Source: Minisyncoccota bacterium (GTDB taxonomy: Bacteria; Patescibacteriota; Minisyncoccia; Minisyncoccales; UBA10102). Taken from it: 43,596 nt of DNA. Positions 1 to 43,391 of the stretch are shown piece after piece. The notes below the pieces were generated by a model, which ran no database searches, was not told the origin of the DNA, and was given only the letters and a program-made list of their open reading frames with translations. The position numbers were made by a program, and so were the translations under genes. Positions within the stretch are counted from its first letter, which is position 1. Each line of letters begins with the position of its first letter. The DNA is taken from contig DASRUP010000076.1 of assembly GCA_035655395.1 (NCBI GenBank), positions 1 to 43,596 of the forward strand, given 5' to 3'.

Positions 1-594
1 CTGAAAGTTCCCTGTTTGCCACGACCCAGGTGCCGGCCCGGTAATGGTTACGTCTGGCGGAGGCGGAGGTGCTATGCAAACAGAACCAAAGTTGCCGACC
101 CCGTCGACCGCCTGCCCCGTGCCGGCAAGAACTTCTGTGCCATTATAATACAAGGAATAGTTTATACTATGAACTGGGCGAATATTTGATGGATTTGTAG
201 AAGCGCATGGGCTTAAGGTTCCCCAACATGCCCGATTAGCAGGGTTCGCTTCAAGTCCAAGACCTGACCCAGGATCGCCGTTTATGTGAATCCAGCGTAT
301 GGCTGAACCGGGCGTACCCTCAAGCACTCCCTTAAGCCCGCTATCAGTAACCACATCTCCAACATGAGCGCTTGCGGCGCATAAAGCGTCTGCGTTTACG
401 AAAGGAACGGCTCCATTACAACCATGTACTTCCGCCCCGTTTGGAAGTGTTCCTAGGAATTGCTCTGTGGTGCCGTCGGCGCAGCCGCTGGCCGGCTGGG
501 CGTGGACTTCTGCTGGCTGAATAGAAACAAAAATCTGCAGGGCGAGCAAAGATACACTGCATACGACAATACCTGCAACCAGAAATCGAAACAT
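1..594 (-). CDS. Glycine-rich surface protein paralog, first 198 codons only (gene continues past the left window edge)
   Basis: Hand translation of the minus strand from ATG 594..592 to position 1 gives an uninterrupted frame: MFRFLVAGIVVCSVSLLALQIFVSIQPAEVHAQPASGCADGTTEQFLGTLPNGAEVHGCNG...CIAPPPPPDVTITGPAPGSWQTGNFQ. It aligns block for block with the N-terminus of the 609..3803 protein. It is absent from the ORF track because it is truncated. Confidence 0.8.
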   Translation of the reverse strand, partial: MFRFLVAGIVVCSVSLLALQIFVSIQPAEVHAQPASGCADGTTEQFLGTLPNGAEVHGCNGAVPFVNADALCAASAHVGDVVTDSGLKGVLEGTPGSAIRWIHINGDPGSGLGLEANPANRACWGTLSPCASTNPSNIRPVHSINYSLYYNGTEVLAGTGQAVDGVGNFGSVCIAPPPPPDVTITGPAPGSWQTGNFQ

Positions 595-608
595 TATACT
601 ATTATAAT

Positions 609-3600
609 TTATCCGCATTGAATCTGCCACCAGGAACTGGTGCCGGTCCATATAGTAACGCCAAGAAGGTCGAGCGCAAAGTCAACGGCAACCCAAGCCC
701 CGTAAATAATAAGCAATGCAATAACCGTGGTAAAAATAATTCCTCTGCCCCTGTTTAAAAGAGCGGGGTTGCCCAGGTTTCCTATAATTATACTAAATCC
801 ACCCACCACGATCATAAGCGCGCCCAAAAGCATCACAATAGCAAAACCATTATTGAAACTCGAGGGGAAGAGCAAAAAAGTAATAATGTTGTGTACGAGC
901 GCAAATCCGTGGCACAGGGTGCATGGCTGGCTTTCGTCGAGTCCTGTGGTGAGGGGGTCGTCTGAATCCCTGCCGCACGGCACCAGCCCGCCCGTAAACG
1001 CGCTGTTGTAGCGCAGTATGGCCTCGCTAAAGTTGCCGGCCAGGTCTGTAGCTTGCGCGCGAATAAAGCATTTGCTTCCCGGCGAGCACCAGCCGGGAAT
1101 TAGTCCCATGTCGGTTAGCCCTGTGCCGCAAGCAGAAGGCCCTGTGTTATGGTCGGTCCACGTTCCTCCTCCGTCGTTTGAGCTGGAAAGGCTGCACGTG
1201 TCTATAAACGCGTCTGTGGCGTTGTACTTAATAGGAAAGTCTGCCGCCAGGTCTGATCCATCTGCGGGCGTCGGCGGTACGTCAAAACTTGCCACGGGTT
1301 TGGTATAGTCTATGGAAAAATCCCGTTCGTCTTGAACAGACGGCACTGTTGATTCTACCCAGCGAATAATAACTTGTCCGTTTCCAGAACGTACGCCCTG
1401 TTGGTGAGTGGTAGATCCTGTGATTTCATAGGCTGGGTCTACATAGCTGGAACCTCCGCCCCCGCCAGCACCACCGACAGCAGCATTGGTAGGAGTACCG
1501 CCACCCTGGCCTCCTCCTCCTCCGTAATACCCACCGCCTCCGCTGCCGCCAGAAAATGAGTCACCCTGTCCTCCCGTGCCAAAACTTCCGCTTGTTGCAG
1601 ATCCTCCTCCTGCGCTGCCTCCCTGATTATTTATAGTATCTCCGCCCCCGCCTCCGATCGAAGGCGAGGGAGCGGGTCTACTTCTAGCTTGATACCAACC
1701 AACATTATAGTCTACCGAACCGTTGCCTCCTTTACCGCCCATAAGTCCACCTCCGCTGCCGCCACTTCCTCCGCTGGCTAAATGAACGTCGTCAAATTCA
1801 ACAAACCCGTTGCCTCCTTCTCCTCCTCCGCCCGCGACAGCAATACGGCTTGCCCCTATTCTTATATCAGAAGCGCCTCCGCCTCCTCCTGGTCCGCCTC
1901 CGTTAAAACCTGAAGTTCCGTTTCCCCCCACGAAGATTTGAAGCACCTGTCCTGGCGTAAGGTTTTGTAAACGAGTGATAACATATCCTCCTCGACCTCC
2001 GCTTCCTCCGCTTGCTGGTAGGCCCGAGTAAAACTTATCAATACCCCTTTCCCCCTGGGCGCCCCACAGCTCAACTTCTATTTCTGAAACTCCTGGTGGC
2101 ACAGGCCAGGTTTGTACACCTCCTGTATAGGCAAAGGTTTGCGAAATTGGAGTGCTGGGCGGCTTTCCCACAATCCTTACATTGCAGGCGTTTTGCCCTT
2201 CCTGGATGCACCAGCCGGAAGCGCCGACCTGAACTGTTGCCGATTGATTAGCTCCGCAAGAGACTGTGCCTCGGTTTTGCCAGCCAACACCACCGTCGTT
2301 TGTTTCGATTTCACATACACCAGAAACAGTTGGCTGCCACGTAATGACTACCTGGCCGTTATCTGTTTGGTATCCTTGGGTATGTGTTGGGTTAAGACAC
2401 TTTGGTGGTTCGCAGTAGCTTGAGCCTCCCCCTCCTCCACTTCCTCCTTTGTCGTCAGAACTTCCGTCTTCATTGGTACCTCCTCCACCGCCTCCACCGC
2501 CGTACCAGCCTCCTCCTCCGCTGCCGCCATGGTAAAACCGAAATCCAGCATTGAATCTGCCACCCCCGCCACCTTGCCCAAACGAACCAGGGGTGCCCGC
2601 GAAGCCATTAGGCCAACCTAAACCTCCCCCACTTAGTTGGGTGCCGCCTTCTCCGCCAGTACCGCCCCATGTGCCAACACCAAAACCGCCACTACCAGGA
2701 AGGCCATTGGCACCCACAAGATCGCCGCCGGCACCACCACCCCCGCCCACGGAAGAACCAGGGCCGCTACCCCGACCACCTCCGCCTCCTGCTACCACAA
2801 GCCGACTGTTAAGCCCGGCAGGATCATCCCATGGTCCAGAAACGGTGCGTATGTCAGAGGCACCTCCACCTCCTTGACCCGGATTGGATGCACCTCCGAA
2901 CCCTCCGCCGTTAAAGCCTCCAGTTGGTCCTGCTCCAGCGCCTCCTACATAGATATTTAAGGTCTGCCCGCTCGGCACGGGAATGGTTGCCTGCACTCGG
3001 CCGCCAAGCCCACCTGTTGAGCTGCCGCCTTGCGCCCCTCGCACATCCACCGTAATTTCCGTAACGCCGGAGGGAACAGTCCAAGGTTGAGAATCTCCGG
3101 TATAGTCGAATGTTTGGCTTTGAGGAGGAGAAGTAGGAAAGGTGGCGTCGTACTGCACCTGAAAATCCCCGTTTTGCCATGAACTAGGCGCCGGCCCGGT
3201 AATGGTTACAGACGGCGGGGGTGGAGGTGTAATACAAATAGCGCCGTCGAGTGGAGAGCCTGAAGGGTAAGCATTGCCCCTGTTTCCAAGGACATTTGTT
3301 CCGTTGTAATAGAGAGAGTAGAGGGAACTAAGAATACCGTGCGCGGGACGAAAGGTCGCAATTGGTCCAAATGCCGAAGAACTCAACATAGTACAAGGAG
3401 CTTGTGTCCCCCAGCACAAGCCGACTGCTGGTTCTGGACCCCCCAACAAGGGCCCAGGGTCACCGTTCATATGAATCCAACGGCGTTCTGAACCGGTCGT
3501 ACTCTCGAGTGCGCTTTTAAGTCCGTTGTCTAAAACCACGTCGCCCACAGTCGCGCTTGGGGCGCAAAGAGAGTCTGCGTTTGCAAAAGTTACACTTCCG

Positions 3601-3803
3601 TTACATCCATGAACTGTTCTGCCGTCGGGGAGTGTGCTAAAATTCTGCTCGGTGGTGCCGTCGGCACAGCCGCTGGCGGGTTGGGCGTGGACTTCTGCTG
3701 GCTGGAGCGAAACAAAAACTTGCAGCGAGAGAAGAGTTACGCCGCATAATACCGTTGCTAAAACGAGAAATTGAAACCCTGTGTTTATCGCGGGGCGATG
3801 CAT
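609..3803 (-). CDS. 1064-aa secreted/anchored glycine-rich protein: signal peptide, Cys-containing N-domain, PPPPP linker, two Gly_rich-type modules, C-terminal LVPCG pilin-like two-TM module
   Basis: Single long ORF. N-terminal hydrophobic leader (FQFLVLATVLCGVTLLSLQVFV). Two copies of F[DA]YTG..Q.W.VP.GV.EI.V...GAQG followed by long G-runs and GGGGASDIR, matching the Pfam Gly_rich pattern as I recall it. The C-terminus reads GGLVPCG...CTLCHGF... plus two hydrophobic helices. Confidence 0.9.
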   Translation of the reverse strand: MHRPAINTGFQFLVLATVLCGVTLLSLQVFVSLQPAEVHAQPASGCADGTTEQNFSTLPDGRTVHGCNGSVTFANADSLCAPSATVGDVVLDNGLKSALESTTGSERRWIHMNGDPGPLLGGPEPAVGLCWGTQAPCTMLSSSAFGPIATFRPAHGILSSLYSLYYNGTNVLGNRGNAYPSGSPLDGAICITPPPPPSVTITGPAPSSWQNGDFQVQYDATFPTSPPQSQTFDYTGDSQPWTVPSGVTEITVDVRGAQGGSSTGGLGGRVQATIPVPSGQTLNIYVGGAGAGPTGGFNGGGFGGASNPGQGGGGASDIRTVSGPWDDPAGLNSRLVVAGGGGGRGSGPGSSVGGGGGAGGDLVGANGLPGSGGFGVGTWGGTGGEGGTQLSGGGLGWPNGFAGTPGSFGQGGGGGRFNAGFRFYHGGSGGGGWYGGGGGGGGTNEDGSSDDKGGSGGGGGSSYCEPPKCLNPTHTQGYQTDNGQVVITWQPTVSGVCEIETNDGGVGWQNRGTVSCGANQSATVQVGASGWCIQEGQNACNVRIVGKPPSTPISQTFAYTGGVQTWPVPPGVSEIEVELWGAQGERGIDKFYSGLPASGGSGGRGGYVITRLQNLTPGQVLQIFVGGNGTSGFNGGGPGGGGGASDIRIGASRIAVAGGGGEGGNGFVEFDDVHLASGGSGGSGGGLMGGKGGNGSVDYNVGWYQARSRPAPSPSIGGGGGDTINNQGGSAGGGSATSGSFGTGGQGDSFSGGSGGGGYYGGGGGQGGGTPTNAAVGGAGGGGGSSYVDPAYEITGSTTHQQGVRSGNGQVIIRWVESTVPSVQDERDFSIDYTKPVASFDVPPTPADGSDLAADFPIKYNATDAFIDTCSLSSSNDGGGTWTDHNTGPSACGTGLTDMGLIPGWCSPGSKCFIRAQATDLAGNFSEAILRYNSAFTGGLVPCGRDSDDPLTTGLDESQPCTLCHGFALVHNIITFLLFPSSFNNGFAIVMLLGALMIVVGGFSIIIGNLGNPALLNRGRGIIFTTVIALLIIYGAWVAVDFALDLLGVTIWTGTSSWWQIQCG
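3186..3803 (-). repeat. About 0.6 kb paralogous segment shared with 1..594 (5' coding regions of the two glycine-rich genes)
   Basis: Shared DNA strings, e.g. ccggcccggtaatggttac (33..51 and about 3190..3208) and ggcgtggacttctgctggctg (about 499..519 and about 3685..3705). Protein blocks QPAEVHAQPASGCADGTTEQ and TITGPAP are conserved. Confidence 0.7.
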
Positions 3804-3810
3804 TACTATA

Positions 3811-4620
3811 TTATAAATCGTTTGCGAGGTTTATCCAATCCTGCACAGACAATGTTTCCGCGCGGCGGGCGGGGTCAATGCTGTTTTTTCGCAAGATAGT
3901 TTCCATGTGTTCCCTTGGACGTTTCAGGCCGGCAGACAGGTTGCCTAACAGCTGTTTTCTGGGGTGGGTGAACCCCGCTTTTACCACGGAGAAAAACTTT
4001 TGCGCGTCAATATCCGGTTTTTCTTTGCGCGGGACAATATGGATAATGGCAGAATCCACATGGGGCTGGGGCCAAAACGATGTTTTCTTAATATATGAAA
4101 TAATTTTGGGCGTGGCGTAAAATTGCACCGAAACCGCCAATATGCTCATGTCCGGGGGTTTCGCGCAAATTCGTTGCGCAACCTCTTTTTGGATTATAAG
4201 CGTTATGGACTGCGGCCGGTTTTCCGCCTCGAGGAATTTTCTGATGGTCGGAGCACTAATATAGTATGGCAAGTTAGCAACTACCTTGTATGTTTGCTTT
4301 GGAACCTGAGTTTTGAGAGCGTCCCCATGAATGACTTCCACGTTTTTGAACTCTGCCAGTGTCCCCTTGAGGATTTCCACCATTTTCGCGTCTTTTTCAA
4401 CGGCCACCACTTTTTTTGCGTGCTTTGCCAATTCCTGGGTAAGGGTGCCAATGCCCGGCCCCACTTCCAAAACCGTGTCTTGCGGCTGAATGCTGGCGGC
4501 AACAACCATTTTTTGGACTATGTGGTCCTCGACAAGGAAATTCTGGCCCAAGCCGCGGCTTGGCTTTATGGTATGTTTCTGCAGCACGGTTTTTATAGTT
4601 TTGGAGGAAGCAAAATTCAT
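3811..4620 (-). CDS. rsmA: 16S rRNA (adenine1518/1519-N6)-dimethyltransferase RsmA/KsgA
   Basis: MNFASSKTIKTVLQKHTIKPSRGLGQNFLVEDHIV...VLEVGPGIGTLT is the KsgA signature. I start at the ATG at 4620 because the 121-codon upstream extension in the track overlaps the divergent M23 gene and looks non-coding. Confidence 0.9.
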   Translation of the reverse strand: MNFASSKTIKTVLQKHTIKPSRGLGQNFLVEDHIVQKMVVAASIQPQDTVLEVGPGIGTLTQELAKHAKKVVAVEKDAKMVEILKGTLAEFKNVEVIHGDALKTQVPKQTYKVVANLPYYISAPTIRKFLEAENRPQSITLIIQKEVAQRICAKPPDMSILAVSVQFYATPKIISYIKKTSFWPQPHVDSAIIHIVPRKEKPDIDAQKFFSVVKAGFTHPRKQLLGNLSAGLKRPREHMETILRKNSIDPARRAETLSVQDWINLANDL

Positions 4621-4656
4621 TGGTATTTGGTATATTGTACCCTGTGGATACAACGC

Positions 4657-4685
4657 TTGACCAGGGCCTTTGAGAAGAGTATAAA
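4657..4685 (+). promoter_or_regulatory. Sigma70-like promoter, TTGACC-17-TATAAA, for the LysM/M23 gene
   Basis: TTGACC at 4657..4662, a 17-nt spacer, TATAAA at 4680..4685. The start codon lies 5-11 nt downstream. Confidence 0.5.
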
Positions 4686-4696
4686 GGATAGTGCCT

Positions 4697-5743
4697 ATGA
4701 GAAAAGAGCGAGAAGAGCCTTCAAGTTCGATTAATCGTAGAGCGCGCAAACCCTTTTTCACCGTAGCTCTTGGAGCTATTTTTTTGTTGGCTCTGGCAGG
4801 TTTGGGAGCCACGGTATTCTCTGATTCTTCTGGGGTGGGAGCGCGTTTTTCGGCTCCCTTGCCCTCAACGTCTGCAATGCACCTGTATGCGAACCAGGCA
4901 GACGTAGCAGAAACCCCGGAATTCGTAACAGTAGGAGAAACAGGAGTTTTAGCTACCGCTCCGCCTGTTGCGGTAAGCCCCAAGGTTCTGGGAGCTATTA
5001 TTGGCGAAGCGAATTTCGCCCAGCAAAACAGAAGGGAGCTTCTTCATTATGCCGTGGAAGAGGGCGATACGATAAAAAGCCTTTCAGAACGGTTCGGCAT
5101 TTCGCAAAACACTATTCTTTGGGTAAACGAGCTTTCGAGCGTTTCTCCGCTTACTCTGGGCCAGGAACTGGTTATTTTGCCGGTATCTGGCGCTCTGCAC
5201 TTAGTGCGGCCAGCAGACACGTTAAGCGAGATTGCCTTATGGTACCAGGGAGATGCCGAGCAAATCATGGAGGCAAACGGGATAGCTTCCGCCAAAGATA
5301 TCTTTGTGGGGGACTTCTTGATAATTCCCGGGGGGATTATGCCAAAAAGCCTGCCCGTAGGGCGTTTAACTCCTTTGGCAAATTCCTACTTTATTTATCC
5401 GGTATCTCGCTCGCACAAATTAAGCCAGGGGCTGCATGCCTTTAACGCAGTTGACCTAAGCAACGGCCAGTGCAACGAACCTGTGTATTCTGCCGCGGGC
5501 GGAACCGTGCAGAAAGTGGGCTATCACAGCGTGGCGGGAAACCATGTGCGGGTTTTGCACCCCAACGGAGTGGTAACCTTTTACGGCCATCTTTCGGGCC
5601 AAACAGTGGAGGTAGGACAAAAAGTTTCCCAGGGCGCAATAGTGGGCTATACCGGCCACACAGGCTATACTATTCCTGCCGGTCCTGACGGATGCCACCT
5701 GCACTTTGAGGTGCGCGGCGCATCAAATCCCTTTGTGAAATAA
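4697..5743 (+). CDS. Membrane-anchored LysM-LysM-M23 (LytM-type) peptidoglycan endopeptidase
   Basis: TM segment FFTVALGAIFLLALAGL. Two LysM-like repeats (YAVEEGDTIKSLSERFGISQNTILWVN and HLVRPADTLSEIALWYQGDAEQIMEANG). M23 core HVRVLHPNGVVTFYGHLS...GYTGHTG...HLHFEV. The start may be GTG 4691 or ATG 4697 (AAGGA sits 8 nt upstream of the ATG). Confidence 0.9.
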   Translation: MRKEREEPSSSINRRARKPFFTVALGAIFLLALAGLGATVFSDSSGVGARFSAPLPSTSAMHLYANQADVAETPEFVTVGETGVLATAPPVAVSPKVLGAIIGEANFAQQNRRELLHYAVEEGDTIKSLSERFGISQNTILWVNELSSVSPLTLGQELVILPVSGALHLVRPADTLSEIALWYQGDAEQIMEANGIASAKDIFVGDFLIIPGGIMPKSLPVGRLTPLANSYFIYPVSRSHKLSQGLHAFNAVDLSNGQCNEPVYSAAGGTVQKVGYHSVAGNHVRVLHPNGVVTFYGHLSGQTVEVGQKVSQGAIVGYTGHTGYTIPAGPDGCHLHFEVRGASNPFVK

Positions 5744-6144: not shown

Positions 6145-8520
6145 CTATTTATTTTGTGAAAGATGATTGAATTGCAGAGGTTCTTCTGAAGGGAAGAAAA
6201 ACTTTTTCTTGAGGTCGAGTACGCGGTTTGCAGAAGCCTCAATTTGTTTGCGCAGTGTTTCGTCGGTTGCAGCCTGTTGCAAAAGCAGTTTGTGCGCCTG
6301 GGTGGCCTCTGGGGTCTCTGCAAACATTAGTATATTCATTCCTGCACGTAAAGGCAAGAAAACGATTTCTTCAAAGGAATAGTTGTCAAGAAGGGCGGGC
6401 TGTGCAAGGTCGTCAGAAAGGATAATGCCTTGAAACCCGAGCTCTTCTCGAATGAGAGACATGCCTTCTATAGAGAAGCTAAATGGGTAGTTTTTGTCCA
6501 CGGTAGAGTAAATAACGTTGGAAGTAAGAAGAAATTCCGGTTCAGAGGAAAGCGCAAATGCGAAAGGAGAAATGTCGGGAAACTCCTGTACGGTAGCAAG
6601 TTTCTTCTCTGGGTTAAAAGAAATGCTGCCGTATCCCGGGAAATGCTTGAGCGTAGAGAGGATATTCTCTGATTTTTGGCCCGCTAAAAGCGCGCGAGCC
6701 AAACGCCCGGCTTCCAAACCCTCGGTTTGAAAGGTGCGCTCAAACAAAAAATCATGTGGCCCCGTGGTGTCCAGCACAGGAGCAAGGTTGAGGTTCACGC
6801 CAAGACTTTTGAGTTCGCGAGCGCGTTCCTTGCCCACCGCGTAGGCTTGAGCAGGGGTTTCAATAGTAGATTGGGCGGTTTTTTCCTTTCCAAACTGAAT
6901 TCTTGAGATAAGTCCTCCTTCTTGATCTACCGCGACAAGCAGAGGAAGAGAGCTGTATTCGAGAGATAACGCCTGCAGCTCTTGCGTAAGTTTTTGGAGT
7001 TGTTGGGAGTCTGTAATGTTTCTTGCTAAAAGGAGAACGCCCCCTGGTCGGAGACGTTTCATGAGTTCTTCAAGTTCTGGGGTAAGGTACGTGCCTTCGA
7101 ATCCTATGAGTAATACCTGGCCTATTGCTTGCTCCAAAGAAAGGTTTTGAGGAGGTTTAAAAAGGCCTGGACTGTTTTCTACTGCGAGTATCTGATTTTG
7201 CAATAAGGCACCCGGAGAATTTTGCAGCTCGTCAATAGCTTCTTTTATCGCCTCAAAAGAAGAAGCGAGAATAAAGCGGTTGTTCACTATTGTGTACACA
7301 ATGCCTACGTCCTGCGTGGAGAACGTCTGAAAACGAACCTCTACCCCGTTATACGACGTGCTGCGGAAAGATTTTGTATATCCGTTTCCCGGATTTCCCC
7401 AAAAGTCGCGTAAGGGGACGAAAGCTTGTTCCATTTGAGGCTCCCATGCGCGCAAACTTTGCCAGAGCGCCGTAGGGTCTGCAACTTCCGAGACTATGCC
7501 AAAGCGGTTACCTCTTTCATAAGAGTAGAGGAAGAAAAACGAGGTTTGTTGAAGTTGGTTGCTTACTGCTTCGGGAACCGGAACTTCAAAAATTCCAAAG
7601 AAAGAGTTCGCGCTCTCCAGTGATGTATTGTCTTGTCTGTTGCGAAAGACGAGCTTGGTAAAACCCTCCTGTTGATCTGCCTCCAACGATTGTTTGAGGG
7701 TACTGGTAAGGTCTGCCTTTTCTGAAAACAGAAGGGTAGAAGTATGGGCAACACCAAGAGGATCAGAAGGAGTGGGCGCGGGTTGCGCTTGAGGAGGGGG
7801 TTGAGGGGAAGGGCCGCTGGCTGGCGGAGGTGTGGGCGTTGGGGTGGTTTGCTCTTGAGAGAAAAACTGGGAAAGGAAAGGAATTTCCACCGATTGATTT
7901 TGGAAAACAAACCAGTAGAGAAATAGGCCGATATTGAGAACGATGAACGCAAAAATAATGACTATGATAGCCCGAACCAAAACTCTTTTACTTCGGGAAG
8001 GGGGCGTGGGAAGAGCTTCAAACCTGTTTTCCTCGCCAGGAGGCAAAATGGAGCTTTGGATGTTGCGCATTCGTTCTTCCTTTCTTGTTTCTTCCCGCTG
8101 CTTTGCCGCCAAAGCTGCCGATCTGATTTTCGCCACGGCGTCTTTCTCTCGCTGGGCGTTTTGTTGCGCTTTCAGTTGCGCGATGCGCTGTTGTTCTTTT
8201 TTTGCCTCTTCCTCGCGAAGCCGGGCAATGTCTTTTGCCATGGTGCGTACTTCGCCGCGTTCCAGATATTCGCGTTTTTGTTCCGGCCGGAAGGGCTCTT
8301 GTTGCCTGGGCGGCATTGGTTTTTCTGGAGGCTGAATCGGTGGTGCAGGGCTGCCAGATGGCGTAGGAGTTGGCCGTTCTGGCTGCGATGGCCGGGGAAA
8401 AGGAGGGGGAGAAACTGGCCTCGATGGTGGTGCCGGAGTTGGCCTGGGGGATTCTGGAGAAGGCTCTATTGGGATATTGGGGGGAGGAGGTTGCTTGCGA
8501 ACAAAATTGTCTTCTTGCAT
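6145..8520 (-). CDS. 791-aa membrane-anchored protein with a proline-rich N-terminus, an unknown middle domain and a C-terminal glycoside hydrolase family 3 (NagZ-like) domain
   Basis: GH3 motifs LLIGFEG, VAVDQEGG and KHFPGYG. TM helix AIIVIIFAFIVLNIGLFLYWFVF. PxP-rich first ~75 residues. Confidence 0.85.
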   Translation of the reverse strand: MQEDNFVRKQPPPPNIPIEPSPESPRPTPAPPSRPVSPPPFPRPSQPERPTPTPSGSPAPPIQPPEKPMPPRQQEPFRPEQKREYLERGEVRTMAKDIARLREEEAKKEQQRIAQLKAQQNAQREKDAVAKIRSAALAAKQREETRKEERMRNIQSSILPPGEENRFEALPTPPSRSKRVLVRAIIVIIFAFIVLNIGLFLYWFVFQNQSVEIPFLSQFFSQEQTTPTPTPPPASGPSPQPPPQAQPAPTPSDPLGVAHTSTLLFSEKADLTSTLKQSLEADQQEGFTKLVFRNRQDNTSLESANSFFGIFEVPVPEAVSNQLQQTSFFFLYSYERGNRFGIVSEVADPTALWQSLRAWEPQMEQAFVPLRDFWGNPGNGYTKSFRSTSYNGVEVRFQTFSTQDVGIVYTIVNNRFILASSFEAIKEAIDELQNSPGALLQNQILAVENSPGLFKPPQNLSLEQAIGQVLLIGFEGTYLTPELEELMKRLRPGGVLLLARNITDSQQLQKLTQELQALSLEYSSLPLLVAVDQEGGLISRIQFGKEKTAQSTIETPAQAYAVGKERARELKSLGVNLNLAPVLDTTGPHDFLFERTFQTEGLEAGRLARALLAGQKSENILSTLKHFPGYGSISFNPEKKLATVQEFPDISPFAFALSSEPEFLLTSNVIYSTVDKNYPFSFSIEGMSLIREELGFQGIILSDDLAQPALLDNYSFEEIVFLPLRAGMNILMFAETPEATQAHKLLLQQAATDETLRKQIEASANRVLDLKKKFFFPSEEPLQFNHLSQNK

Positions 8521-13820: not shown

Positions 13821-15269
13821 TTACTTTACCCAATATTTTTGTTTGGTTGTTTCGTCGCGTTGGGTTTCGACCTGGTCGCGTTCTTGGCGCGCTTTTTTCG
13901 CAAGCTCTTGCAGCTCTTTTTCTGGTAACGAAAGGAACTCTTTTACCCGTTGTTCCAAATAATCTTTCTCGTTCTTTTTGGGGTCTTCAAGCACTTCGCC
14001 CAATAGGACATCGAGAACTTGTCCTATCTTTGGCCCTGGCTCTATGTTGCCTAACTTCATGATATCGTTGCCGTTCACAGCAAGCATGCCGGGCGAAATA
14101 GGGTCTTGCGATACCTTTTCAATCATATACTGCCAGTGGCGAAGGCGGTAGGGTTGGGCTTTCGGAACGCCCGATCCAATGCGGTCTGCCATGCGGAGGT
14201 AGAGCAGGTCTTGCATATGTTCTGCGCCCACTTTGCGGATAAGACGGCGCACCGACGACTCGGTTACTTCATCTACATTATAGTAAAACATGTGGTAACG
14301 AATAAGGTCGGAAATGAGCTCTATTTGTTTGCGCGGAAACTTGAGGCGGGCCATCAGGTCCCGCGCCATGCGAGATCCCAGCGCTTCGTGGTTATAAAAT
14401 GTGGAGTCGGGTCCATCCCCTTGCTTTACTCTTGGTTTTGCCACATCGTGCAGCAACGCAGCCAAACGAACTTCCAGGCTCCAGTTCTGTTCTGTCGCAT
14501 ATTGGAGCGAGCGAAGGTTGTGTTCCCACACGGTGTACTTATGGTGTTTGTTTTGCGAAACTTCATATCCTTCCTCGAGCTCGGGTGCAATAAAGGAAAG
14601 CAACTTGAGTTCCCGCAAAAGCTCAATGCCGGCCATGGCTTGTTTTGCCATAACAATTTTGCAGAATTCGTCTCTGATGCGCTCTTTGGAAATTTCCTGC
14701 AGGAGGGCGGCGTTTTTTTGTATTGCTTCTTTTGTTTTGGGTTCTATGAAAAACCCGAGCTGCGTTGCCAGTCTGGCAGCGCGCATCATGCGCAGAGCAT
14801 CTTCCTGAAAGCGGGCTTCGGGCTCTCCTACGGCTCGAATAATTTTTGCTTTCAAGTCCTCTTGTCCGCCAAAAGGGTCGATAATTTCTTTTCCCCGAAG
14901 CGCAATGGCGTTTACCGTAAAATCGCGCCGCGAAAGATCCTCTTGGAGCGTTTGGGCGTATTTCACTTCTTCTGGCCTTCTGCGATCGGTATACTTGTGA
15001 TCTGATCGATACGTGGTAATTTCGATTTCCTTGAGTTTAGGATTTTGGCTTTGTGTAAGAACAGTTACCGTGAAAAACTTGTTTTCGTAAAAGCTTTCGG
15101 GGAAAATCTTCTGTAATTCTTCGGGGCGGGCTTGTGTGGTAACATCCCAATCTTCGGGTTCTCGGCCCAAAAGCAAATCTCGTACGCACCCGCCTACCAC
15201 ATAGGCTTCAAACCCTTGTTTTTCCAGCGTTTCCCCAATCTCTTGTACTTCTTTCGGGATTGCCTTCAT
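13821..15269 (-). CDS. cca: CCA-adding tRNA nucleotidyltransferase (PolyA_pol head plus HD domain)
   Basis: AYVVGGCVRDLLLGREPEDWDVTT and RRDFTVNA motifs. HD region LLHDVAKP. Confidence 0.9.
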   Translation of the reverse strand: MKAIPKEVQEIGETLEKQGFEAYVVGGCVRDLLLGREPEDWDVTTQARPEELQKIFPESFYENKFFTVTVLTQSQNPKLKEIEITTYRSDHKYTDRRRPEEVKYAQTLQEDLSRRDFTVNAIALRGKEIIDPFGGQEDLKAKIIRAVGEPEARFQEDALRMMRAARLATQLGFFIEPKTKEAIQKNAALLQEISKERIRDEFCKIVMAKQAMAGIELLRELKLLSFIAPELEEGYEVSQNKHHKYTVWEHNLRSLQYATEQNWSLEVRLAALLHDVAKPRVKQGDGPDSTFYNHEALGSRMARDLMARLKFPRKQIELISDLIRYHMFYYNVDEVTESSVRRLIRKVGAEHMQDLLYLRMADRIGSGVPKAQPYRLRHWQYMIEKVSQDPISPGMLAVNGNDIMKLGNIEPGPKIGQVLDVLLGEVLEDPKKNEKDYLEQRVKEFLSLPEKELQELAKKARQERDQVETQRDETTKQKYWVK

Positions 15270-22793: not shown

Positions 22794-24821
22794 TTACTTA
22801 TCCTTACTGTCAATTGAATCTGTGCCAACAAAGATGTTACCAGAGAAAGTTTTACCAAAGAGGGTGGCTTCCGTTGATTCACAAGTGAGGGTCGTTTCAT
22901 TTTGGCGGAAATGAGACACCAAATCAACATCGCCATCTTTGTCCACGTCTTCTTCATGCCGCGTCATTGCCTTGTTCTTCCCACTTTTGTGCGTTTCACT
23001 CGCGCCCTCAAAAAGTACAGTGGTATGGTCTACGGTTGTAGCGTCGAAAGCATCTGTAGTTAAGATGGCTACAGGGATTACACCATTCCCTTTAGCTTCG
23101 CAGTTCATAGGATTGGTGTCGGAACCAGGCTTAATATCAATTTGTACTTCGTGTACAGAGAATATATCTCCTGCTTGAACTATTGTAGATTTACCGTTGA
23201 TTACAAGAGGAATTTCCCCTTCACCAGAGGTTTCTATAACAAGTTGATCATCAACAACGTCATATTTCAAAATTTGTCCAGCGCTTACTGTTCCTACAAC
23301 CTCGAGAGTTCCTACCGTTATTTGGAGCTCGGCGCTTCCCTCTTCTGCTGCAACTTCCATACTCCCACAGGTAGTTGTTCCGATGAATGGAACGAATTTT
23401 GGTATAGAAAGGAAGGGCCCAATAACCGGGAGAGTTCCTAAGGTGATACATTTAAGTGTATCGAATTTGATGGTTGCGCGTTCGCTGCCGAAATCCGCAG
23501 TAATATGTGCGCCTCCAACTGCAGCATCTCTAATTTTAATGTCGCGATCCCCTCTATTTGTAATGGTACCAGAGGTATTTCTGCCGAGTGGTCCGGGAGC
23601 ATCAAAGTCATTGGAAGGATCATTTGGTTGTGTATCGACGTTGTTCCAAATTCCATCAAAGTCCCCATCACAGCTATCGTTATAGAAGTCGTCCCAAGTT
23701 ATTGTGTTTAAGTTAGTCCAAGAAATAGGGGTAGGCCATCTTTCTGGTTGTTGAAGTGGTCCTCTTGGACTTTCTTTTACGAACGGAACATCATCTTCGC
23801 CCCATCTTCCACCGAACAAAAGCCATTTCTGTGGCGTTGTGCTGATCGAAGGTCCTCCAAGAATGCTATCGATAACGATTCTGAGGTCAAGGGTTCCTAG
23901 TTTCTTGGCAGAAGTTCCGCGATCGCTCCCAATTCCTGTCGGAATAGTTACATCACATACGCCTCGTTGGAAATGATTTGCATGAGATCCCTCTGCAACA
24001 TAAACTACTGGTCTGTCGTTTTCTTTTTCTACATTGTCCCAATTACTTCGATAGCCACCAAGGTGGGCAGAGTAAGCCGATCTTTCAGGCCAAATACTTT
24101 GTTTAACGACCTCTTCGATAGATTTATTCTGTTCGAATATTAACTGGATAAATTCCCAGTCTCCTTCGTGATCAGGGCCTCCTTCCCAACTATTGTAGTA
24201 GTAGAAAAACCAATATTGCAGGACAATGTGGCCTTCATCTTCAAGAATGTGAGCATAAGCAGTGTTTTTATAAGGGATATCAGTAAACGGAATGTGTTCG
24301 ATAAACGTGTTACCGTCCAGATTGAGTTTGTAGTGGCTTTCGGTACGAGAGCTTAAGTCGGTAGGGGCAAGTGGGCTCGTCTCTTCGACTATGTGATTTT
24401 CTGTATTAACAATATCTGCCGTGTCCAAGACGACTTGGATTTCCTGGGGGCGGAAGCGCTCTTCTTCGTGAAAATACAAAATTGGTTTGAACTTTTCAGC
24501 GAGGAGTTCTTCGAAGTTTACGGCAGGAGGAAAAATGGGCGGTGCGGTAGTAGCCTGAAGCGTCGCATCGGCATTTCCCCAGGAAACATTGTCGTTTTCC
24601 CGGGGAGAGATTGTGGGCTGTATGAGGAGTGACTGTACGCCAATGCCATTGCCAAAAGATGCAAATACGCTTTCGACAGGGCTAATAGAGGCCGCGAGAA
24701 CCGAAGTTTCAACAGATGCGTCTGCATCTTCAAAAACAGCAACAGCCTGGGCGTTTGTTAGGCTCGAAGGGAAAATTACAAGACTAACCGCAGCCGAGAA
24801 TAAAACGAAAAACAAGCGCAT
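22794..24821 (-). CDS. Secreted 675-aa protein with a Vps62/DUF946-like domain and a C-terminal Ca-binding (DxDxDGD) beta-sandwich-like region
   Basis: Signal peptide MRLFFVLFSAAVSLVIFPSSLTNAQA. PILYFHEEERFRP and YWFFYYYNSWEGGPDHEGDWEFIQL (24141..24215) match the Vps62 hallmark as I recall it. HEEDVDKDGDVDLVSHF near the C-terminus. Confidence 0.8.
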   Translation of the reverse strand: MRLFFVLFSAAVSLVIFPSSLTNAQAVAVFEDADASVETSVLAASISPVESVFASFGNGIGVQSLLIQPTISPRENDNVSWGNADATLQATTAPPIFPPAVNFEELLAEKFKPILYFHEEERFRPQEIQVVLDTADIVNTENHIVEETSPLAPTDLSSRTESHYKLNLDGNTFIEHIPFTDIPYKNTAYAHILEDEGHIVLQYWFFYYYNSWEGGPDHEGDWEFIQLIFEQNKSIEEVVKQSIWPERSAYSAHLGGYRSNWDNVEKENDRPVVYVAEGSHANHFQRGVCDVTIPTGIGSDRGTSAKKLGTLDLRIVIDSILGGPSISTTPQKWLLFGGRWGEDDVPFVKESPRGPLQQPERWPTPISWTNLNTITWDDFYNDSCDGDFDGIWNNVDTQPNDPSNDFDAPGPLGRNTSGTITNRGDRDIKIRDAAVGGAHITADFGSERATIKFDTLKCITLGTLPVIGPFLSIPKFVPFIGTTTCGSMEVAAEEGSAELQITVGTLEVVGTVSAGQILKYDVVDDQLVIETSGEGEIPLVINGKSTIVQAGDIFSVHEVQIDIKPGSDTNPMNCEAKGNGVIPVAILTTDAFDATTVDHTTVLFEGASETHKSGKNKAMTRHEEDVDKDGDVDLVSHFRQNETTLTCESTEATLFGKTFSGNIFVGTDSIDSKDK

Positions 24822-24833
24822 TGGACTTGCAAG

Positions 24834-33393: not shown

Positions 33394-34669
33394 AGGATTT
33401 GTAGGGTTATACATTACGATTATTGTGTTAATGGTAACGCTTGCCGTTTTGGTAAGCATGGGATTTAGTGTGGTTGTACAACAGCGCATTGCGCAAAATA
33501 CCGTGCAGTCTGCCCAGGCGTATTACGGCGCGGAAGCCGGTGTCGAAGACGCTCTGATTAGATTGAAATCAGGGAAAAACGTATGCAACCCACCAGGATC
33601 TCCCCCTTGTTCCAACTCCATTTCCTTGTGGAGCGGGCCAGCAATCGTAATAACCGTTTCCGACGTTGTAGGAGGCGCGAGAACGGTTACCGCAGAAGGA
33701 GATGCTACAAACCGTTTCCGCACCGTGCAAACGGTGTTTGAGATTTCTTCTACAGGGGTAGGTTTTAACTATGGAGCGCAGATAGGCGAGGGCGGCCTTC
33801 AAATGGATAATAACGCTATTGTGAACGGCAATGTGTTTTCCAATGGAAATGTTATAGGGGAAAACGGAAGCCGAATTACCGGCACCGTACAGATAGCTGG
33901 ACCAGGGAAAATACTGGATAATGTAGATATCGGAACCGTTGGCATTGGAGGTGATGCATATGTGGATATTTGTCAAAATAGCGGTAGCGGCACGAGAATT
34001 GAGGGAGATCTTCATACAAATAGCGCTGGCCCATGTGTGGTAGTCGGCTCGACGACAAGTTCGGGACTACCAATTGCCCCAATTCCTTTGCCTATTCTCG
34101 ATAGCCAAATTGATGCATGGAAGTTAGATGCAGATGATGGTTTTCCCTTGGTAAACATTACGGTTACCGATACGTTACCAGGAGTTGACCTTTCGCTTGG
34201 CCCCAAAAAAATAACAGGGGAGCTGATCGTGGACAACAATGCCACCCTCGAGGTTACAGGCACCCTTTGGGTCGTTGGCAAAGTAACCATAAAAAATGGC
34301 GCCGTCGTGCAACTTAATCCTGGCTATGGTACTTCAAGCGGCATGATTATTTCAAATGATATTGTTTTGCTGGACAACAACAGCGTCTCGAAAGGCTCGG
34401 GCCAGGCTGGGAGTTATTTAATGTATATTTCCACTTCTACCTCGAGTCAGGCAATTGAGTCCAAAAACAATGCGAAAGCAGACATTCTGTATACGAACAC
34501 AGGTACCATTAAAGTAGACAATAACGCAGGTCTTCGGGAGGTCGTGGGATATCGTATGCACCTATTGAATAATGCGGTGATTACTTATGAGAGCGGATTG
34601 GCAAACTCGGCGTTTACGTCGGGGCCGGGGGGCGGCTGGGTGGTAACAAGTTGGAAAGAAATTGAATAA
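33386..34669 (+). CDS. PilX/GspK-like large minor pilin (427 aa) with a predicted beta-helical C-terminal region
   Basis: N-terminal hydrophobic helix GFVGLYITIIVLMVTLAVLVSMG without a Glu5, QAYYGAEAGVEDAL (PilX_N-like), and repeats NNAIVNGNVFSNGNVIGENGSRITGTV. ATG 33386 overlaps the upstream stop. Confidence 0.7.
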   Translation: MNKGFVGLYITIIVLMVTLAVLVSMGFSVVVQQRIAQNTVQSAQAYYGAEAGVEDALIRLKSGKNVCNPPGSPPCSNSISLWSGPAIVITVSDVVGGARTVTAEGDATNRFRTVQTVFEISSTGVGFNYGAQIGEGGLQMDNNAIVNGNVFSNGNVIGENGSRITGTVQIAGPGKILDNVDIGTVGIGGDAYVDICQNSGSGTRIEGDLHTNSAGPCVVVGSTTSSGLPIAPIPLPILDSQIDAWKLDADDGFPLVNITVTDTLPGVDLSLGPKKITGELIVDNNATLEVTGTLWVVGKVTIKNGAVVQLNPGYGTSSGMIISNDIVLLDNNSVSKGSGQAGSYLMYISTSTSSQAIESKNNAKADILYTNTGTIKVDNNAGLREVVGYRMHLLNNAVITYESGLANSAFTSGPGGGWVVTSWKEIE

Positions 34670-34688
34670 CAAGATACAATAAGTACTA

Positions 34689-35798
34689 ATGGCAGGACTT
34701 CTTACGCTTCATCCCAAAGCATTTGGTTTAGATCTGTCTGATTTGTCGCTCAAGATTGTGAGTCTTGAGGAGCGCGGCAAAGGGTTTAGGCTTTCTTCGT
34801 TTGGCGAGGCAAGCATTCCCGAAGGAGTTATCGAGGGGGGAGAAATTAGAAAAGAAGAGAAACTTGTCCAGGTCATTCGAAAAGCGGTTGCCGAGGTAAA
34901 AGGGAAGAAAATCCAAACAAACTACATGGTAGCTTCCCTTCCCGAAGAAAAAGGGTTTGTTCAGGTGGTGCAATTTCCCCCTATGGGCAAAGAAGAACTT
35001 GGTAACGCTATACGCCTGCAGGCAGAAAACTACATACCCTATCCGGTGGACACTGTGTACCTCGATTTTACGGTTATTCCCCCTTCGCACAATCATGTCG
35101 ACCATTTAGACGTGCTTATTGCTTCTCTTCCGCGCACCATAGTTGATTCTTACATTTCGGCATTTGAGAAGGCGGGGTTTACTCCCCGGGCGCTTGAGAT
35201 AGACGCCCTTGCCTTGAGCAGGGCAGTCATAGAAAAGGGGGTTGCGCCCGTGCCTGTATTGCTTGTGGACGTGGGAAACGCAAGAACGAAGTTCAGCATT
35301 TTTTCAGGGTACAGTTTGCGTTTCACCACTTCCGTCCCGGTTTCTGCCAATACGTTTACCCAGGCCGTGGCAACCAGGCTGGGAGTAGAAGAAGAACGTG
35401 CAGAAGAGCTCAAAAGAATGTACGGTTTGGATTCCATTGAAGAAAAACTGGGCGACGAAGTTTTTCAGGCCATGGCGCCCTCGGCCACAGAGTTTGTAAA
35501 ACAAATTCAAAAATACTTAACGTACTACGAAACCCATATTCCCCACCAGCATTTAGACCGCCCCCAAAAGAAGATTAAAAAAGTCGTGCTCTGCGGAGGC
35601 GGAGCCAACCTGCGGGGGCTGCCCGAATTTCTTATGCGTTTCTTAAAAGTGGAAGTCGCGGTGGGAAACCCCTGGGTGAATATTCTTTCCGCTTCTTTAA
35701 AAGAGTTGCCGGCTCTCCCGTTCCAGGATTCCCTGCGCTATAGCACGGCTTTGGGCCTGGGCCTGCGGGGCGTGAAGAGAGAAGTTTCCGATGATTAA
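34689..35798 (+). CDS. pilM: Type IV pilus assembly protein PilM (actin-like ATPase fold)
   Basis: 369 aa. FGLDLSDLSLKIV...LVDVGNARTKFSIF...VLCGGGANLRGL. Confidence 0.9.
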   Translation: MAGLLTLHPKAFGLDLSDLSLKIVSLEERGKGFRLSSFGEASIPEGVIEGGEIRKEEKLVQVIRKAVAEVKGKKIQTNYMVASLPEEKGFVQVVQFPPMGKEELGNAIRLQAENYIPYPVDTVYLDFTVIPPSHNHVDHLDVLIASLPRTIVDSYISAFEKAGFTPRALEIDALALSRAVIEKGVAPVPVLLVDVGNARTKFSIFSGYSLRFTTSVPVSANTFTQAVATRLGVEEERAEELKRMYGLDSIEEKLGDEVFQAMAPSATEFVKQIQKYLTYYETHIPHQHLDRPQKKIKKVVLCGGGANLRGLPEFLMRFLKVEVAVGNPWVNILSASLKELPALPFQDSLRYSTALGLGLRGVKREVSDD

Positions 35799-36318
35799 CC
35801 TTCTTCCTCCAGAATACAGACAGCGGCTCAAAGACGAGGAATATTTTCGCCTCGTTCTTATCTTGGGTGCGCTCCTTTTGCTGTTTTTCGTATCGTTGTC
35901 TTTGATGCTCCTGTCGATTCGCATTTATCTTTCGGGCGAGATCGACGCCCAAAAAATTTTGGTAGAACGCCAGCAGGAAGAATACAATCGCGAGAATCCC
36001 TTGGAACTGAACGTAAAAGATCTTAATCGGAGCGTAGCCCAACTGGCGGCATTTTACAAAGAGCAAATTCTGCTTTCTGAAACCCTACAGGAAGTTACGG
36101 CCGCTCTGCCCCCTCAAGCCTATCTTACTTCTTTTGTGTATAACGCCGGCGCTCCCGGCAAAATTTCATTGGCAGGTTTTGCCCCGACAAGCGAAGACTT
36201 GCAGGCGTTCAGAGGGACCTTGGAGCAGAATCCCCGATTTTCGAACTTTTTCTTTCCGCTTTCAAACTCGACAAGCGAGCGCGATATTACGTTTTCCTTT
36301 ACGTTTACGGTGCAATGA
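35791..36318 (+). CDS. pilN: PilN
   Basis: MINLLPPEYRQR followed by a single TM helix. Overlaps pilM by 8 nt. Confidence 0.8.
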   Translation: MINLLPPEYRQRLKDEEYFRLVLILGALLLLFFVSLSLMLLSIRIYLSGEIDAQKILVERQQEEYNRENPLELNVKDLNRSVAQLAAFYKEQILLSETLQEVTAALPPQAYLTSFVYNAGAPGKISLAGFAPTSEDLQAFRGTLEQNPRFSNFFFPLSNSTSERDITFSFTFTVQ

Positions 36319-40697: not shown

Positions 40698-40769
40698 GCC
40701 CCCGTAGTTCAACGGACAGAACAGGAAACTCCTAAGTTCTCGATAGAGGTTCAATTCCTCTCGGGGGCA
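40698..40769 (+). tRNA. tRNA-Arg (anticodon CCT)
   Basis: GCCCCCG/CGGGGGC acceptor, anticodon loop CTCCTAA (with one A:G mismatch at 31:39), T-loop TTCAATT. Confidence 0.8.
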
Positions 40770-40798
40770 CACTTTGCAGGCTCAGTGTAGACAAACAG

Positions 40799-40869
40799 GG
40801 GCCTATAGTAAATCGGCATTACGCCTCCATGGCATGGAGGAGGGCGGGGTTCAATTCCCCGTAGGTCCA
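40799..40869 (+). tRNA. tRNA-Ala (anticodon GGC)
   Basis: GGGCCTA/TAGGTCC acceptor with G3:U70. Anticodon stem CCTCC/GGAGG with loop ATGGCAT. Confidence 0.9.
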
Positions 40870-40873
40870 CAAA

Positions 40874-40958
40874 GGAGATGTGCCGGAGCGGTTGAACGGG
40901 GCGGTCTCGAAAACCGCTATACCGAAAGGTATCGGAGGTTCGAATCCTCCCATCTCCG
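40874..40958 (+). tRNA. tRNA-Ser (anticodon CGA), class II long variable arm
   Basis: GGAGATG/CATCTCC acceptor, anticodon loop CTCGAAA, variable arm TATACCGAAAGGTATC. Confidence 0.9.
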
Positions 40959-40966
40959 CAAAGCCT

Positions 40967-43229: not shown

Positions 43230-43304
43230 GGCGCGATAGGCAAGTGGTAAGCCAAGGGTCTGCAAAACCCTTATGCGTGGGTTCGATTCCCACTCGCGCC
43301 TCCA
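43230..43304 (+). tRNA. tRNA-Cys (anticodon GCA)
   Basis: GGCGCGA/TCGCGCC acceptor, anticodon loop CTGCAAA. CCA is encoded. Confidence 0.9.
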
Positions 43305-43306
43305 AT

Positions 43307-43388
43307 GCCCGGGTGGCGGAATTGGTTTACGCAGAGGACTTAAAATCCTTGACCGAAAGGTTTGTGGGTTCGAGCCCCACCCCGGGCA
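43307..43388 (+). tRNA. tRNA-Leu (anticodon TAA), class II
   Basis: GCCCGGG/CCCGGGC acceptor, anticodon loop CTTAAAA, long variable arm GACCGAAAGGTTT. Confidence 0.9.
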
Positions 43389-43391
43389 CAG

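Follow-up and report, generated by a model that had tools for sequence, protein, structure and literature searches.

The stretch of DNA analysed here, a 43,596-nucleotide contig of a Minisyncoccota bacterium (DASRUP010000076.1, assembly GCA_035655395.1; hereafter the window), carries at its left edge two minus-strand genes, designated A and B, which we characterized as candidate pilin-fusion genes of a type IV secretion system (T4SS). These genes are co-directional and lie 14 nucleotides (nt) apart, as described in an initial annotation made from the sequence alone (Table 1). Gene A is complete and gene B is cut by the window edge; the complete B was seen on L001, an ENA scaffold that is 99.6% identical to the window and continues beyond its left edge, and the second paralog that the initial annotation had expected further leftward was recovered in this way. 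The alignable first ~200 residues reported in that annotation proved to be 61% identical (207 columns, E = 2e-80; DNA 74-78% identical); A and B have in common the leader, the segment QPAEVHAQPASGCADGTTEQ, a head domain with six Cys, a PPPPP linker and TITGPAP.

Upstream of A on the same strand, rsmA (ksgA) ends 7 nt before the start of A. The mechanically called rsmA open reading frame (ORF; 3811-4983, minus strand, 390 amino acids (aa), TTG start) is over-extended, with homology beginning at residue ~140; both the homologous region and a 269-aa gene call on L001 place the rsmA start at ATG 4620.

The protein encoded by gene A is 23% glycine, and the initial annotation had asked whether the region might be an assembly artefact of low-complexity GGN repeats. 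This was not borne out: the glycine-rich giant-gene region is real coding sequence, because Tandem Repeats Finder detected one 24-nt stretch at most in the gene A region and because gene A is also present in two other independent assemblies, in which the aligned locus is at least 99.5% identical to the window. The L001 copy of A differs from the window copy by 3 aa.

Table 1. Positions of the genes, protein domains and sequence elements in the 43,596-nt window (residue numbers refer to protein A; GRD, glycine-rich domain; M1 and M2, immunoglobulin (Ig)-like modules)
Feature	Position	Strand	Basis or remark
Gene A	609..3803	minus	ATG..TAA ORF, 1064 aa, pilin-fusion protein
Leader / Sec-type signal peptide, residues 1-40	3684..3803	minus	Hydropathy; hydrophobic core ~6-36
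Cys-rich head, residues 41-193, six Cys	3225..3683	minus	Common to A and B, 59-61% identical
PPPPP linker and first part of M1, residues 194-228, TITGPAPSSWQNGDFQVQYDAT	3120..3224	minus	Colinear alignment with intact modules
GRD1, residues 229-492, nested in M1	2328..3119	minus	PF12810, E = 1.1e-13 scanned alone
Second part of M1, residues 493-553, Asp-box-like TNDGGVGW and four Cys	2145..2327	minus	Alignment
GRD2, residues 554-818, predicted ALK/LTK TG-like fold	1350..2144	minus	PF12810, PF21722, AlphaFold2, Foldseek
M2, Ig-like / Asp-box, residues 819-932, SSSNDGGGTW	1008..1349	minus	Aligns with M1 and P0002 modules
VirB2-like pilin domain, residues 933-1064	612..1007	minus	Profile search, hhalign, hydropathy
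A-B intergenic spacer, 14 nt	595..608	minus	Holds TATAAT 606..601
Gene B, first 198 codons (leader, Cys-rich head, PPPPP, start of Ig-like module)	1..594	minus	ATG at 594; cut by window edge
Strain-variable junction of gene B	1..61	minus	Complete divergence from L001 (13743+) and L002 from the PPPP linker on
TATAAT before gene A	3815..3810 (within 3804..3815)	minus	Ends 6 nt before the ATG of A; overlaps rsmA stop codon
rsmA/ksgA	3811..4620	minus	TIGR00755, E = 7.5e-75; 269-aa gene call on L001
PilB-like ATPase	28454-30214	plus
PilC	30222-31448	plus
PilM	34689-35798	plus
PilN	35791-36318	plus
Unannotated ORFs in type IV pilus cluster		plus	Including PilX_N protein, 33308-34669

A VirB2-like pilin domain ends both proteins

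The initial annotation overlooked the C-terminal domain of the two proteins, which was revealed by profile search and profile-profile alignment. In A this domain contains the motif GGLVPCG..C..C, two hydrophobic helices (~981-1012 and ~1019-1051) and the C-terminal end ...WWQIQCG; the loop between the helices, NLGNPALLNRGRG, includes NRGRG according to the hydropathy analysis. The complete B on L001 likewise ends in GGLVPCG followed by a hairpin. Together with the hydrophobic segment of the signal peptide (6-36), the two C-terminal segments (981-1012 and 1019-1051) and their short basic loop would give A the topology of an exported protein with a two-helix membrane hairpin.

A profile was built from the C-terminal domains of A, B and two relatives, P0002 and P0010. 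It retrieved 123 proteins, almost all of them stand-alone proteins of 120-230 aa, with 40-49% identity over ~95% of the domain and E values down to about 1e-33. The retrieved proteins are named 'pilin' at source, come from Patescibacteria, Paceibacterota and Kaiserbacteria, and match PF18895 in most cases and PF04956 (TrbC/VirB2) in some. When the domain was compared by hhalign with 24 of the retrieved pilins, all of which carry PF18895 and 12 of which carry PF04956, the match had a probability of 100% (E = 2.9e-41, 120 columns). We therefore assign the last ~130 residues of both A and B to the VirB2-like T4SS pilin domain of the Patescibacteria type.

An NCBIfam search with the C terminus of A gave no match. 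Two other classes of surface protein were looked for in A: there was no Pfam match to PrgB/antigen I/II-type adhesin domains and no LPXTG, and with regard to type IV pilus pilins there was no N_methyl/pilin Pfam match and no G/FTLIE motif in the leader. At 1064 aa for A and at least ~885 aa for B, both proteins exceed the usual size of a pilin precursor (about 100-200 aa).

The genes adjoin a T4SS gene cluster

Just past the left edge of the window, and missed by the initial annotation, lies a T4SS cluster that is visible on L001. The gene order on this scaffold is ksgA, A, B, a 182-aa ORF, TrbL/VirB6 (1244 aa, E = 2.7e-8), small membrane proteins including a PrgI/TcpE-like one, a TraC-like gene and a VirB4-like ATPase of the DUF87/TraG P-loop type. 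The VirB6, PrgI-like (VirB3-like), TraC-like and VirB4 genes share the strand of A and B and follow them at a distance of 3-10 kb downstream, with the A/B pair ~9.6 kb upstream of virB4. No other pilin-domain ORF occurs in the window and L001 (~53 kb around the locus). The order ksgA, pilin fusion, VirB6, o200, PrgI-like, TraC-like, VirB4 recurs in full or in part in other metagenomic contigs (L023, L026/27, L029, L031, L033 and L035), and ksgA directly precedes the pilin-fusion genes in L029, L031, L033 and L035.

The T4SS of Patescibacteria has been described as chromosomal and MPF-FATA-like, with tandem arrays of two to eleven divergent VirB2-like pilin genes near virB4 (mean mutual identity 25%; the supplementary table does not list pilin lengths) and with KsgA frequently encoded near virB4 (PMC12102498). 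The proximity of rsmA, which the initial annotation had described as co-transcribed with the surface-protein genes, is better regarded as a known landmark of these loci than as a sign that a surface protein and rRNA methylation are functionally linked. A and B are likewise two adjacent pilin-domain genes near virB4, and their pilin domains are 28% identical. They resemble the arrays of the Southlakia epibionticum ML1 type (SEML1_0006-0019 region) in pilin family (the PF18895/PF04956-type hairpin with GLVPCG), in their tandem and divergent arrangement, and in their chromosomal locus near ksgA with MPF-FATA-like VirB4, VirB3 and VirB6. Unlike those arrays, which consist of small stand-alone pilins, A and B are ~1000 aa long and carry passengers of ~900 aa between leader and pilin core. 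Because of the C-terminal pilin domain and the T4SS cluster past the window edge, A and B are best classified as pilin genes of a secretion system rather than as free-standing adhesins. The organism, which the initial annotation took for a likely episymbiont, is a Patescibacterium, and the closest homologue comes from a Candidatus Paceibacterota metagenome-assembled genome.

Architecture of the passengers

Protein A is organized as leader, Cys-rich head, M1 with GRD1 nested within it, GRD2, M2 and VirB2-like pilin domain; local hidden Markov models (HMMs) delimited cys at 41-198, grd at 229-492 and 554-818, and pilin at 933-1063. In each of the two proteins the passenger separating the leader from the two-helix membrane hairpin is about 900 residues long. 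The leader is likely to be cleaved after VHA, judging from its sequence, and in the relative encoded on L035 the same leader stands directly before the pilin domain (MFRFCVV...YAQAQYGLVPCG).

The Cys-rich head belongs to a very rare family. An exhaustive search of 1.84 billion representatives yielded 26 proteins at E <= 0.001, and a word-indexed database gave 4 additional matches. Several of these proteins also bear a pilin domain, in either order: the head follows the pilin domain in P0243, P0245, P0249 and P0260, and P0243 (293 aa) has the simple arrangement pilin-PPPPP-head. An AlphaFold2 model of the head, based on a 7-sequence alignment, had a mean predicted local distance difference test score (pLDDT) of 56. 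The Foldseek search with this model returned nothing significant (no match below E = 4), and its long alignments were confined to C-type lectin-like domains (thrombomodulin, EMS16 and CD93; E = 5-8, probability 0.03-0.04), a lead according to which the head may be C-type lectin-like.

M1 is split by GRD1, in that residues 198-228 and 493-553 are colinear with the intact modules of P0002, P0010, B (L001) and L008; a module near-identical to M2 is present in L011. Beyond the window, B comprises at least two glycine-rich domains, Ig-like and FN3-like modules and a B-type pilin domain (L001, L002 and L034). The lower bound on its length is the sum of 539 and 346 residues on either side of a scaffold gap. 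This N gap in L001 (~14830-14930) conceals the second glycine-rich domain of B, as shown by the JGI contig L034 (1-1041) of the same organism, and on L001 the gene caller broke B into several small ORFs.

Two modules with the pattern F[DA]YTG..Q.W.VP.GV.EI and with GGGGASDIR had been noted in A and attributed to Pfam family PF12810 (ALK_LTK_GRD), and both attributions held: the whole of A scored 63.8 bits, where the cut-off is 24.5, and each of the modules (GRD1 and GRD2) matched. GRD1 alone scored 52.2 bits; in GRD2 the best stretch for PF12810 is 576-811, and PF21722 matched with E = 4e-8. The two domains are 43% identical to each other. Whether such sequence is ordered, a check proposed by the initial annotation, was addressed with an AlphaFold2 model of GRD2 computed from an alignment of 34 such modules, which had been excised from homologues in the databases. 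An ordered structure was predicted (mean pLDDT 85.5, predicted template modelling score 0.87), with beta-strands at both ends and with glycine stretches at model residues ~181-220 and ~231-250 that have a pLDDT of ~90 or more and are assigned neither helix nor strand. The top 15 Foldseek matches in the PDB were all ALK/LTK TG/GRD structures (E = 5e-7 to 5e-5, probability 1.00). The GRD is thus predicted to adopt the ALK/LTK-type TG fold, a TNF-like beta-sandwich with an ordered glycine-rich part. The ordered segments that are neither alpha nor beta, together with the ALK/LTK matches, give indirect support to a putative polyglycine-II (PGII) lattice in the modelled domain.

A search of gene A against PDB chains by sequence returned low-complexity noise only, and no Pfam matches to kinase, EGF-like, MAM or LDLa domains were found in A. 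By these domain assignments, A shares a domain with ALK/LTK and is not a member of the receptor tyrosine kinase family. The likeness to ALK/LTK TG (7NX1, 7LRZ and 7N00) extends to the Pfam family and to the predicted beta-sandwich with its long ordered glycine-rich part, whereas A differs in having no kinase, EGF-like module or ALKAL partner, in a sequence identity of ~20%, and in carrying two copies of the domain, one of them nested in an Ig-like module. After ALK/LTK, the next PDB matches of GRD2 were the cyanophage Pam3 fibre and the mycobacteriophage Bxb1 tail tip, and 166 predicted viral structures matched at E <= 1e-3 (best template modelling score (TM-score) 0.69, root-mean-square deviation 3.5 Å). 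In a passage of PMC13243192 that cites Dunne 2018, PGII bundles in phage fibres, as in S16 gp38, are tied to host recognition. A and B would resemble such fibres and tail tips (S16 gp38; Pam3 fibre, 7YPX/7YFW; Bxb1 tail tip, 9D93), which carry a glycine-rich PGII-type module for recognition of a bacterial surface at the distal end of an extracellular filament, but they sit on a cellular T4SS pilin and not on a virion. A phage origin was rejected, as the flanks consist of housekeeping and T4SS genes with no phage genes nearby.

PF12810-type domains are common in bacterial surface proteins (2591 matches), many of them in Bacteroidota and sorted by the type IX secretion system (T9SS). A and B share with these Bacteroidota and Actinomycetota proteins (T9SS-sorted, HYR/Ig-rich) the repeated GRDs and the large, secreted, multi-domain build; they differ in that sorting or anchoring falls to the VirB2-like pilin hairpin, in place of a T9SS C-terminal domain or none.

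Related pilins carry different passengers

Scans with the pilin profile gave 7 loci in the genome collection, where the derived patterns were narrow, and 25 loci in metagenomes, both sets being biased towards the GGLVPCG subtype. About 20 of the 25 metagenomic loci with this subtype encode fusions, a proportion that is not an estimate for all Patescibacteria pilins. Their passengers extend up to ~756 aa on the N-terminal side of the pilin domain or 188-452 aa on its C-terminal side, and the passenger domains among related pilins include SLT lytic transglycosylase, NHL propeller, Laminin_G_3 and PKD. The relatives retain the leader and pilin domain and differ in the passenger: P0002 has one GRD, P0010 a DUF642/PKD-type region, and the 1159-aa protein of L008 has Ig/PKD repeats without a glycine-rich domain. 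Several related fusions reach the PF18895 threshold directly. In L018 (3671-4636; Pfam E = 4e-18) and L010 (1366-2418), the SLT lytic transglycosylase is at the C-terminal side of the pilin domain, and such fusions would place a VirB1-like activity on the pilin itself.

The component families and the pilin arrays are already known. A pilin fused to large modular ectodomains, including ALK-type GRDs, is not described in the literature searched, in which we found nothing specific on earlier pilin-passenger fusions or on the bacterial function of PF12810; most subscription journals lay outside that search.

Mosaic structure and strain variation

The description of A and B as paralogous holds for the heads (59% identical) and the glycine-rich domains (37-44%) and fails toward the C terminus, where the pilin domains share the low identity given above and the pre-pilin modules are unrelated. 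The pilin types are closer to outside relatives, A to P0002 (70%) and B to P0010 (62%). On these comparisons we regard A and B as mosaics, and the earlier view of duplicated, diversifying genes is upheld in that form.

Over the aligned locus, of which the first ~530 nt of B are part, the window is 99.5-99.6% identical to L001 and L002. From the PPPP linker of B on, the window encodes DVTITGPAPGSWQTGNFQ, and the two other assemblies encode ALPCDGVWNTPGQHDC followed by a glycine-rich domain. The two variants of B at the base 61/62 junction read PPPPPDVTITGPAP... and PPPALPCDGVW.... Because the window variant is only 78% identical to the equivalent stretch of A, it is not a copy of A. The divergence in window 1-61 is either a strain-level cassette swap or the reason that the contig ends there. 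In addition, the leader of P0241 is of the A type and its glycine-rich domain of the B type, and at window 948..972 (minus strand), within the pilin domain of A, 10 substitutions in 25 nt relative to L001 change S947T and L951A. Here L001 agrees with L011, a third member of the family, at 34 of 35 positions, and the stretch looks like a short gene-conversion tract. The B junction, P0241 and the 948-972 tract fit exchange of modules and short conversion tracts among family members, and the recombination between copies that the initial annotation had envisaged gains support from the divergence at the PPPP linker of B and from the P0241 chimera.

The Bartonella Trw pilins (VirB2/TrwL) and the T4SS pilin paralogues of Anaplasma and Rickettsia are also amplified, tandem and divergent; according to a view discussed in PMC12102498, their divergence alters what is exposed on the cell and so serves host-specific adhesion or immune evasion. 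There the small pilin itself is variable; in A and B the variation is in whole passenger modules.

Transcription

A TATAAT hexamer ends 6 nt before the ATG of B, in the same geometry as the one before A (Table 1), and TATAAT or TAAAAT-like hexamers are found at this position before the pilin-fusion genes of L012, L026, L031, L033 and L035. No Shine-Dalgarno sequence is visible before A or B. This arrangement suggests leaderless mRNAs for A, B and the related fusions. Neither between rsmA and A nor between A and B was a terminator-like site found, so that co-transcription of A with rsmA, as first proposed, is plausible given the short gap and the common strand; leaderless transcription from the genes' own promoters is as plausible as read-through from rsmA.

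Other features of the window

Next to rsmA and divergent from it, 4691-5743 (plus strand) encodes a LysM-LysM-M23 peptidase, and 6145-8520 (minus strand) encodes a GH3 (NagZ-like) protein that is extended at its N terminus by a long proline-rich segment; cell-wall enzymes of the LysM-M23 and GH3 kind have been reported near Patescibacteria T4SS loci (PMC12102498). A type IV pilus cluster occupies 28454-36318 on the plus strand, ~25 kb from the T4SS pilin fusions. Two adjacent minus-strand ORFs of 675 and 294 aa (22794-25718) had no Pfam match at E <= 1e-5, and 37443-40340 (plus strand) encodes a 965-aa protein with a DUF2339 membrane domain and a thrombospondin type 3 repeat. The 43.6-kb window also contains thirteen dispersed tRNA genes, with small clusters at 40698-40959 and 43230-43389.

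Discussion

The interpretation that we consider probable is that A and B constitute a two-gene VirB2-like 'pilin array' of a chromosomal Patescibacteria T4SS, whose members carry extracellular passengers for host-contact display. The leader would drive Sec export, after which the C-terminal hairpin would insert with both ends outside and the arginine-rich loop inside, as in VirB2/TraA. Next, the T4SS ATPase and the VirB6 platform could either draw the pilin domain out into a short pilus or stalk or retain it at the machine, and the rigid GRDs and the head would then reach away from the cell and touch the surface of the host. What is displayed would comprise the Cys-rich head, which is specific to the lineage, the disulfide-rich Ig-like modules with their Asp boxes and the two domains of ALK/LTK type, and the two divergent copies, together with module swaps between copies and strains, would vary that surface. 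In VirB2/TraA pilins both termini point to the outside, whether the pilin is in the membrane or at the surface of the pilus, so that display would be expected for a passenger at either end, in keeping with the fusions found on both sides of the pilin domain. Of the surface-adhesin role first proposed for these proteins, export and duplication stand and the free-standing context does not, given the pilin domain and the locus; host contact would follow from the steps just outlined.

The design principle is a familiar one. In FimH, with its lectin and pilin domains, and in bimodular type IV pilins such as PilB of Streptococcus sanguinis, a functional module is fused to a pilin module that plugs into the filament, and A and B would share this principle. 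They are unlike these chaperone-usher and type IV pilus proteins in that the pilin fold and the machine are those of a VirB2-like T4SS and the passengers are far larger and multi-domain.

Several observations weigh against the array interpretation. PF18895 is the top Pfam match of the last 132 residues of A, but their score is below its threshold (11.8 bits versus 26.6, E = 0.27). P0002, the closest A-type relative, has no T4SS gene within 10 kb, and therefore such a fusion need not be encoded beside the machine. With 1064 aa, the subunit may be too large to pack as a major pilin, and the ~53 kb around the locus contain no small stand-alone pilin; a pilus composed only of A and B is therefore sterically doubtful. 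As to pilus formation in Patescibacteria, PMC12857230 speaks only of the 'potential to elaborate conjugative pili'. The Foldseek TM-scores of the GRD2 model to ALK/LTK are modest (0.41-0.44), the head model is of low confidence, and no ligand was identified in this analysis.

The most serious alternative, which we judge unlikely, is that the VirB2-like hairpin is a membrane anchor only and that A and B are T4SS-independent surface adhesins or coat proteins that never enter a pilus. The location of P0002 away from T4SS genes speaks for this, passengers of up to ~1000 aa at either end of the pilin domain are hard to fit into tight helical packing, and these loci have none of the usual Gram-positive sortase/LPXTG adhesins, no PrgB-type adhesin having been detected in a survey of Patescibacteria (PMC12102498). 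On the other hand, the position beside ksgA, VirB6 and VirB4 is kept in several independent contigs, this T4SS locus has no pilin-domain genes other than A and B, and the fusion of SLT (VirB1-like) to pilin domains suggests that they are functionally connected with the machine. The pilin arrays of Southlakia are, moreover, essential together with the T4SS (PMC10633639).

T4SS and pilins are needed for epibiotic growth of Southlakia in a role described as unknown (PMC10633639, PMC12857230, PMC11665869), and effector delivery has been proposed for the Patescibacteria T4SS (PMC11665869). The passenger could accordingly be a host-envelope-binding or lytic effector that is delivered or released by the T4SS, with the pilin domain as a removable export or targeting tag, and the enzymes (SLT) of some related fusions would suit such a function. 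We regard this as improbable, since A and B contain no Pfam-detectable catalytic domain and no evident processing site, and since a Sec-type leader and modules rich in disulfide-forming Cys are typical of stably displayed extracellular proteins.

Equally hard to sustain, and in our estimate very improbable, is the reading with which the annotation of this DNA began, that of free-standing duplicated glycine-rich adhesins in an rsmA operon without secretion-system context. The tight same-strand spacing to rsmA with no predicted terminator and the frequency of PF12810 in other bacterial surface proteins, such as those of T9SS-sorting Bacteroidota, speak for it, but it overlooks the pilin domain and the adjacent T4SS genes, which contradict its 'no context' form; ksgA adjacency is a reported T4SS landmark (PMC12102498), and promoter-like hexamers immediately precede both start codons. 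An assembly artefact or a pseudogene of low-complexity repeats, to which the glycine content, the N gap within gene B on one related scaffold and the end of the window inside gene B might point, has a negligible probability, given an intact 3.2-kb ORF of gene A near-identical in three independent assemblies, the near absence of DNA tandem repeats, significant Pfam matches and a confidently predicted fold; the assembly comparison and Tandem Repeats Finder led us to reject it.

Beyond this locus, we tentatively extend the array interpretation to Paceibacteria-like Patescibacteria in general, in which the T4SS pilin, either as each subunit or as a tip or minor subunit, might be a general display scaffold with swappable heads (PGII GRDs, perhaps a lectin-like Cys-rich domain, ConA-like lectins, beta-propellers and a lytic transglycosylase) that serve host recognition and host range. 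If this is true, the T4SS works like a cell-borne phage tail fibre, and in A and B we have the adhesins missed by the surveys.

The subtype represented by A and B also bears on how such pilins are counted: because its score falls below the PF18895 threshold, surveys with that HMM would miss A and B, and Pfam-based surveys undercount pilins. Once the ALK/LTK glycine-rich fold is assigned to a particular bacterial machine, its function in bacteria could be studied in that setting. Epibiotic growth requires both the T4SS and the pilin array in the single Patescibacterium that is open to genetics, yet a survey across genomes detected no adhesin for this system; pilins with large, modular, strain-variable ectodomains are a concrete and testable candidate for the means by which ultrasmall bacteria recognize and hold their hosts, and hint at a determinant of host range.

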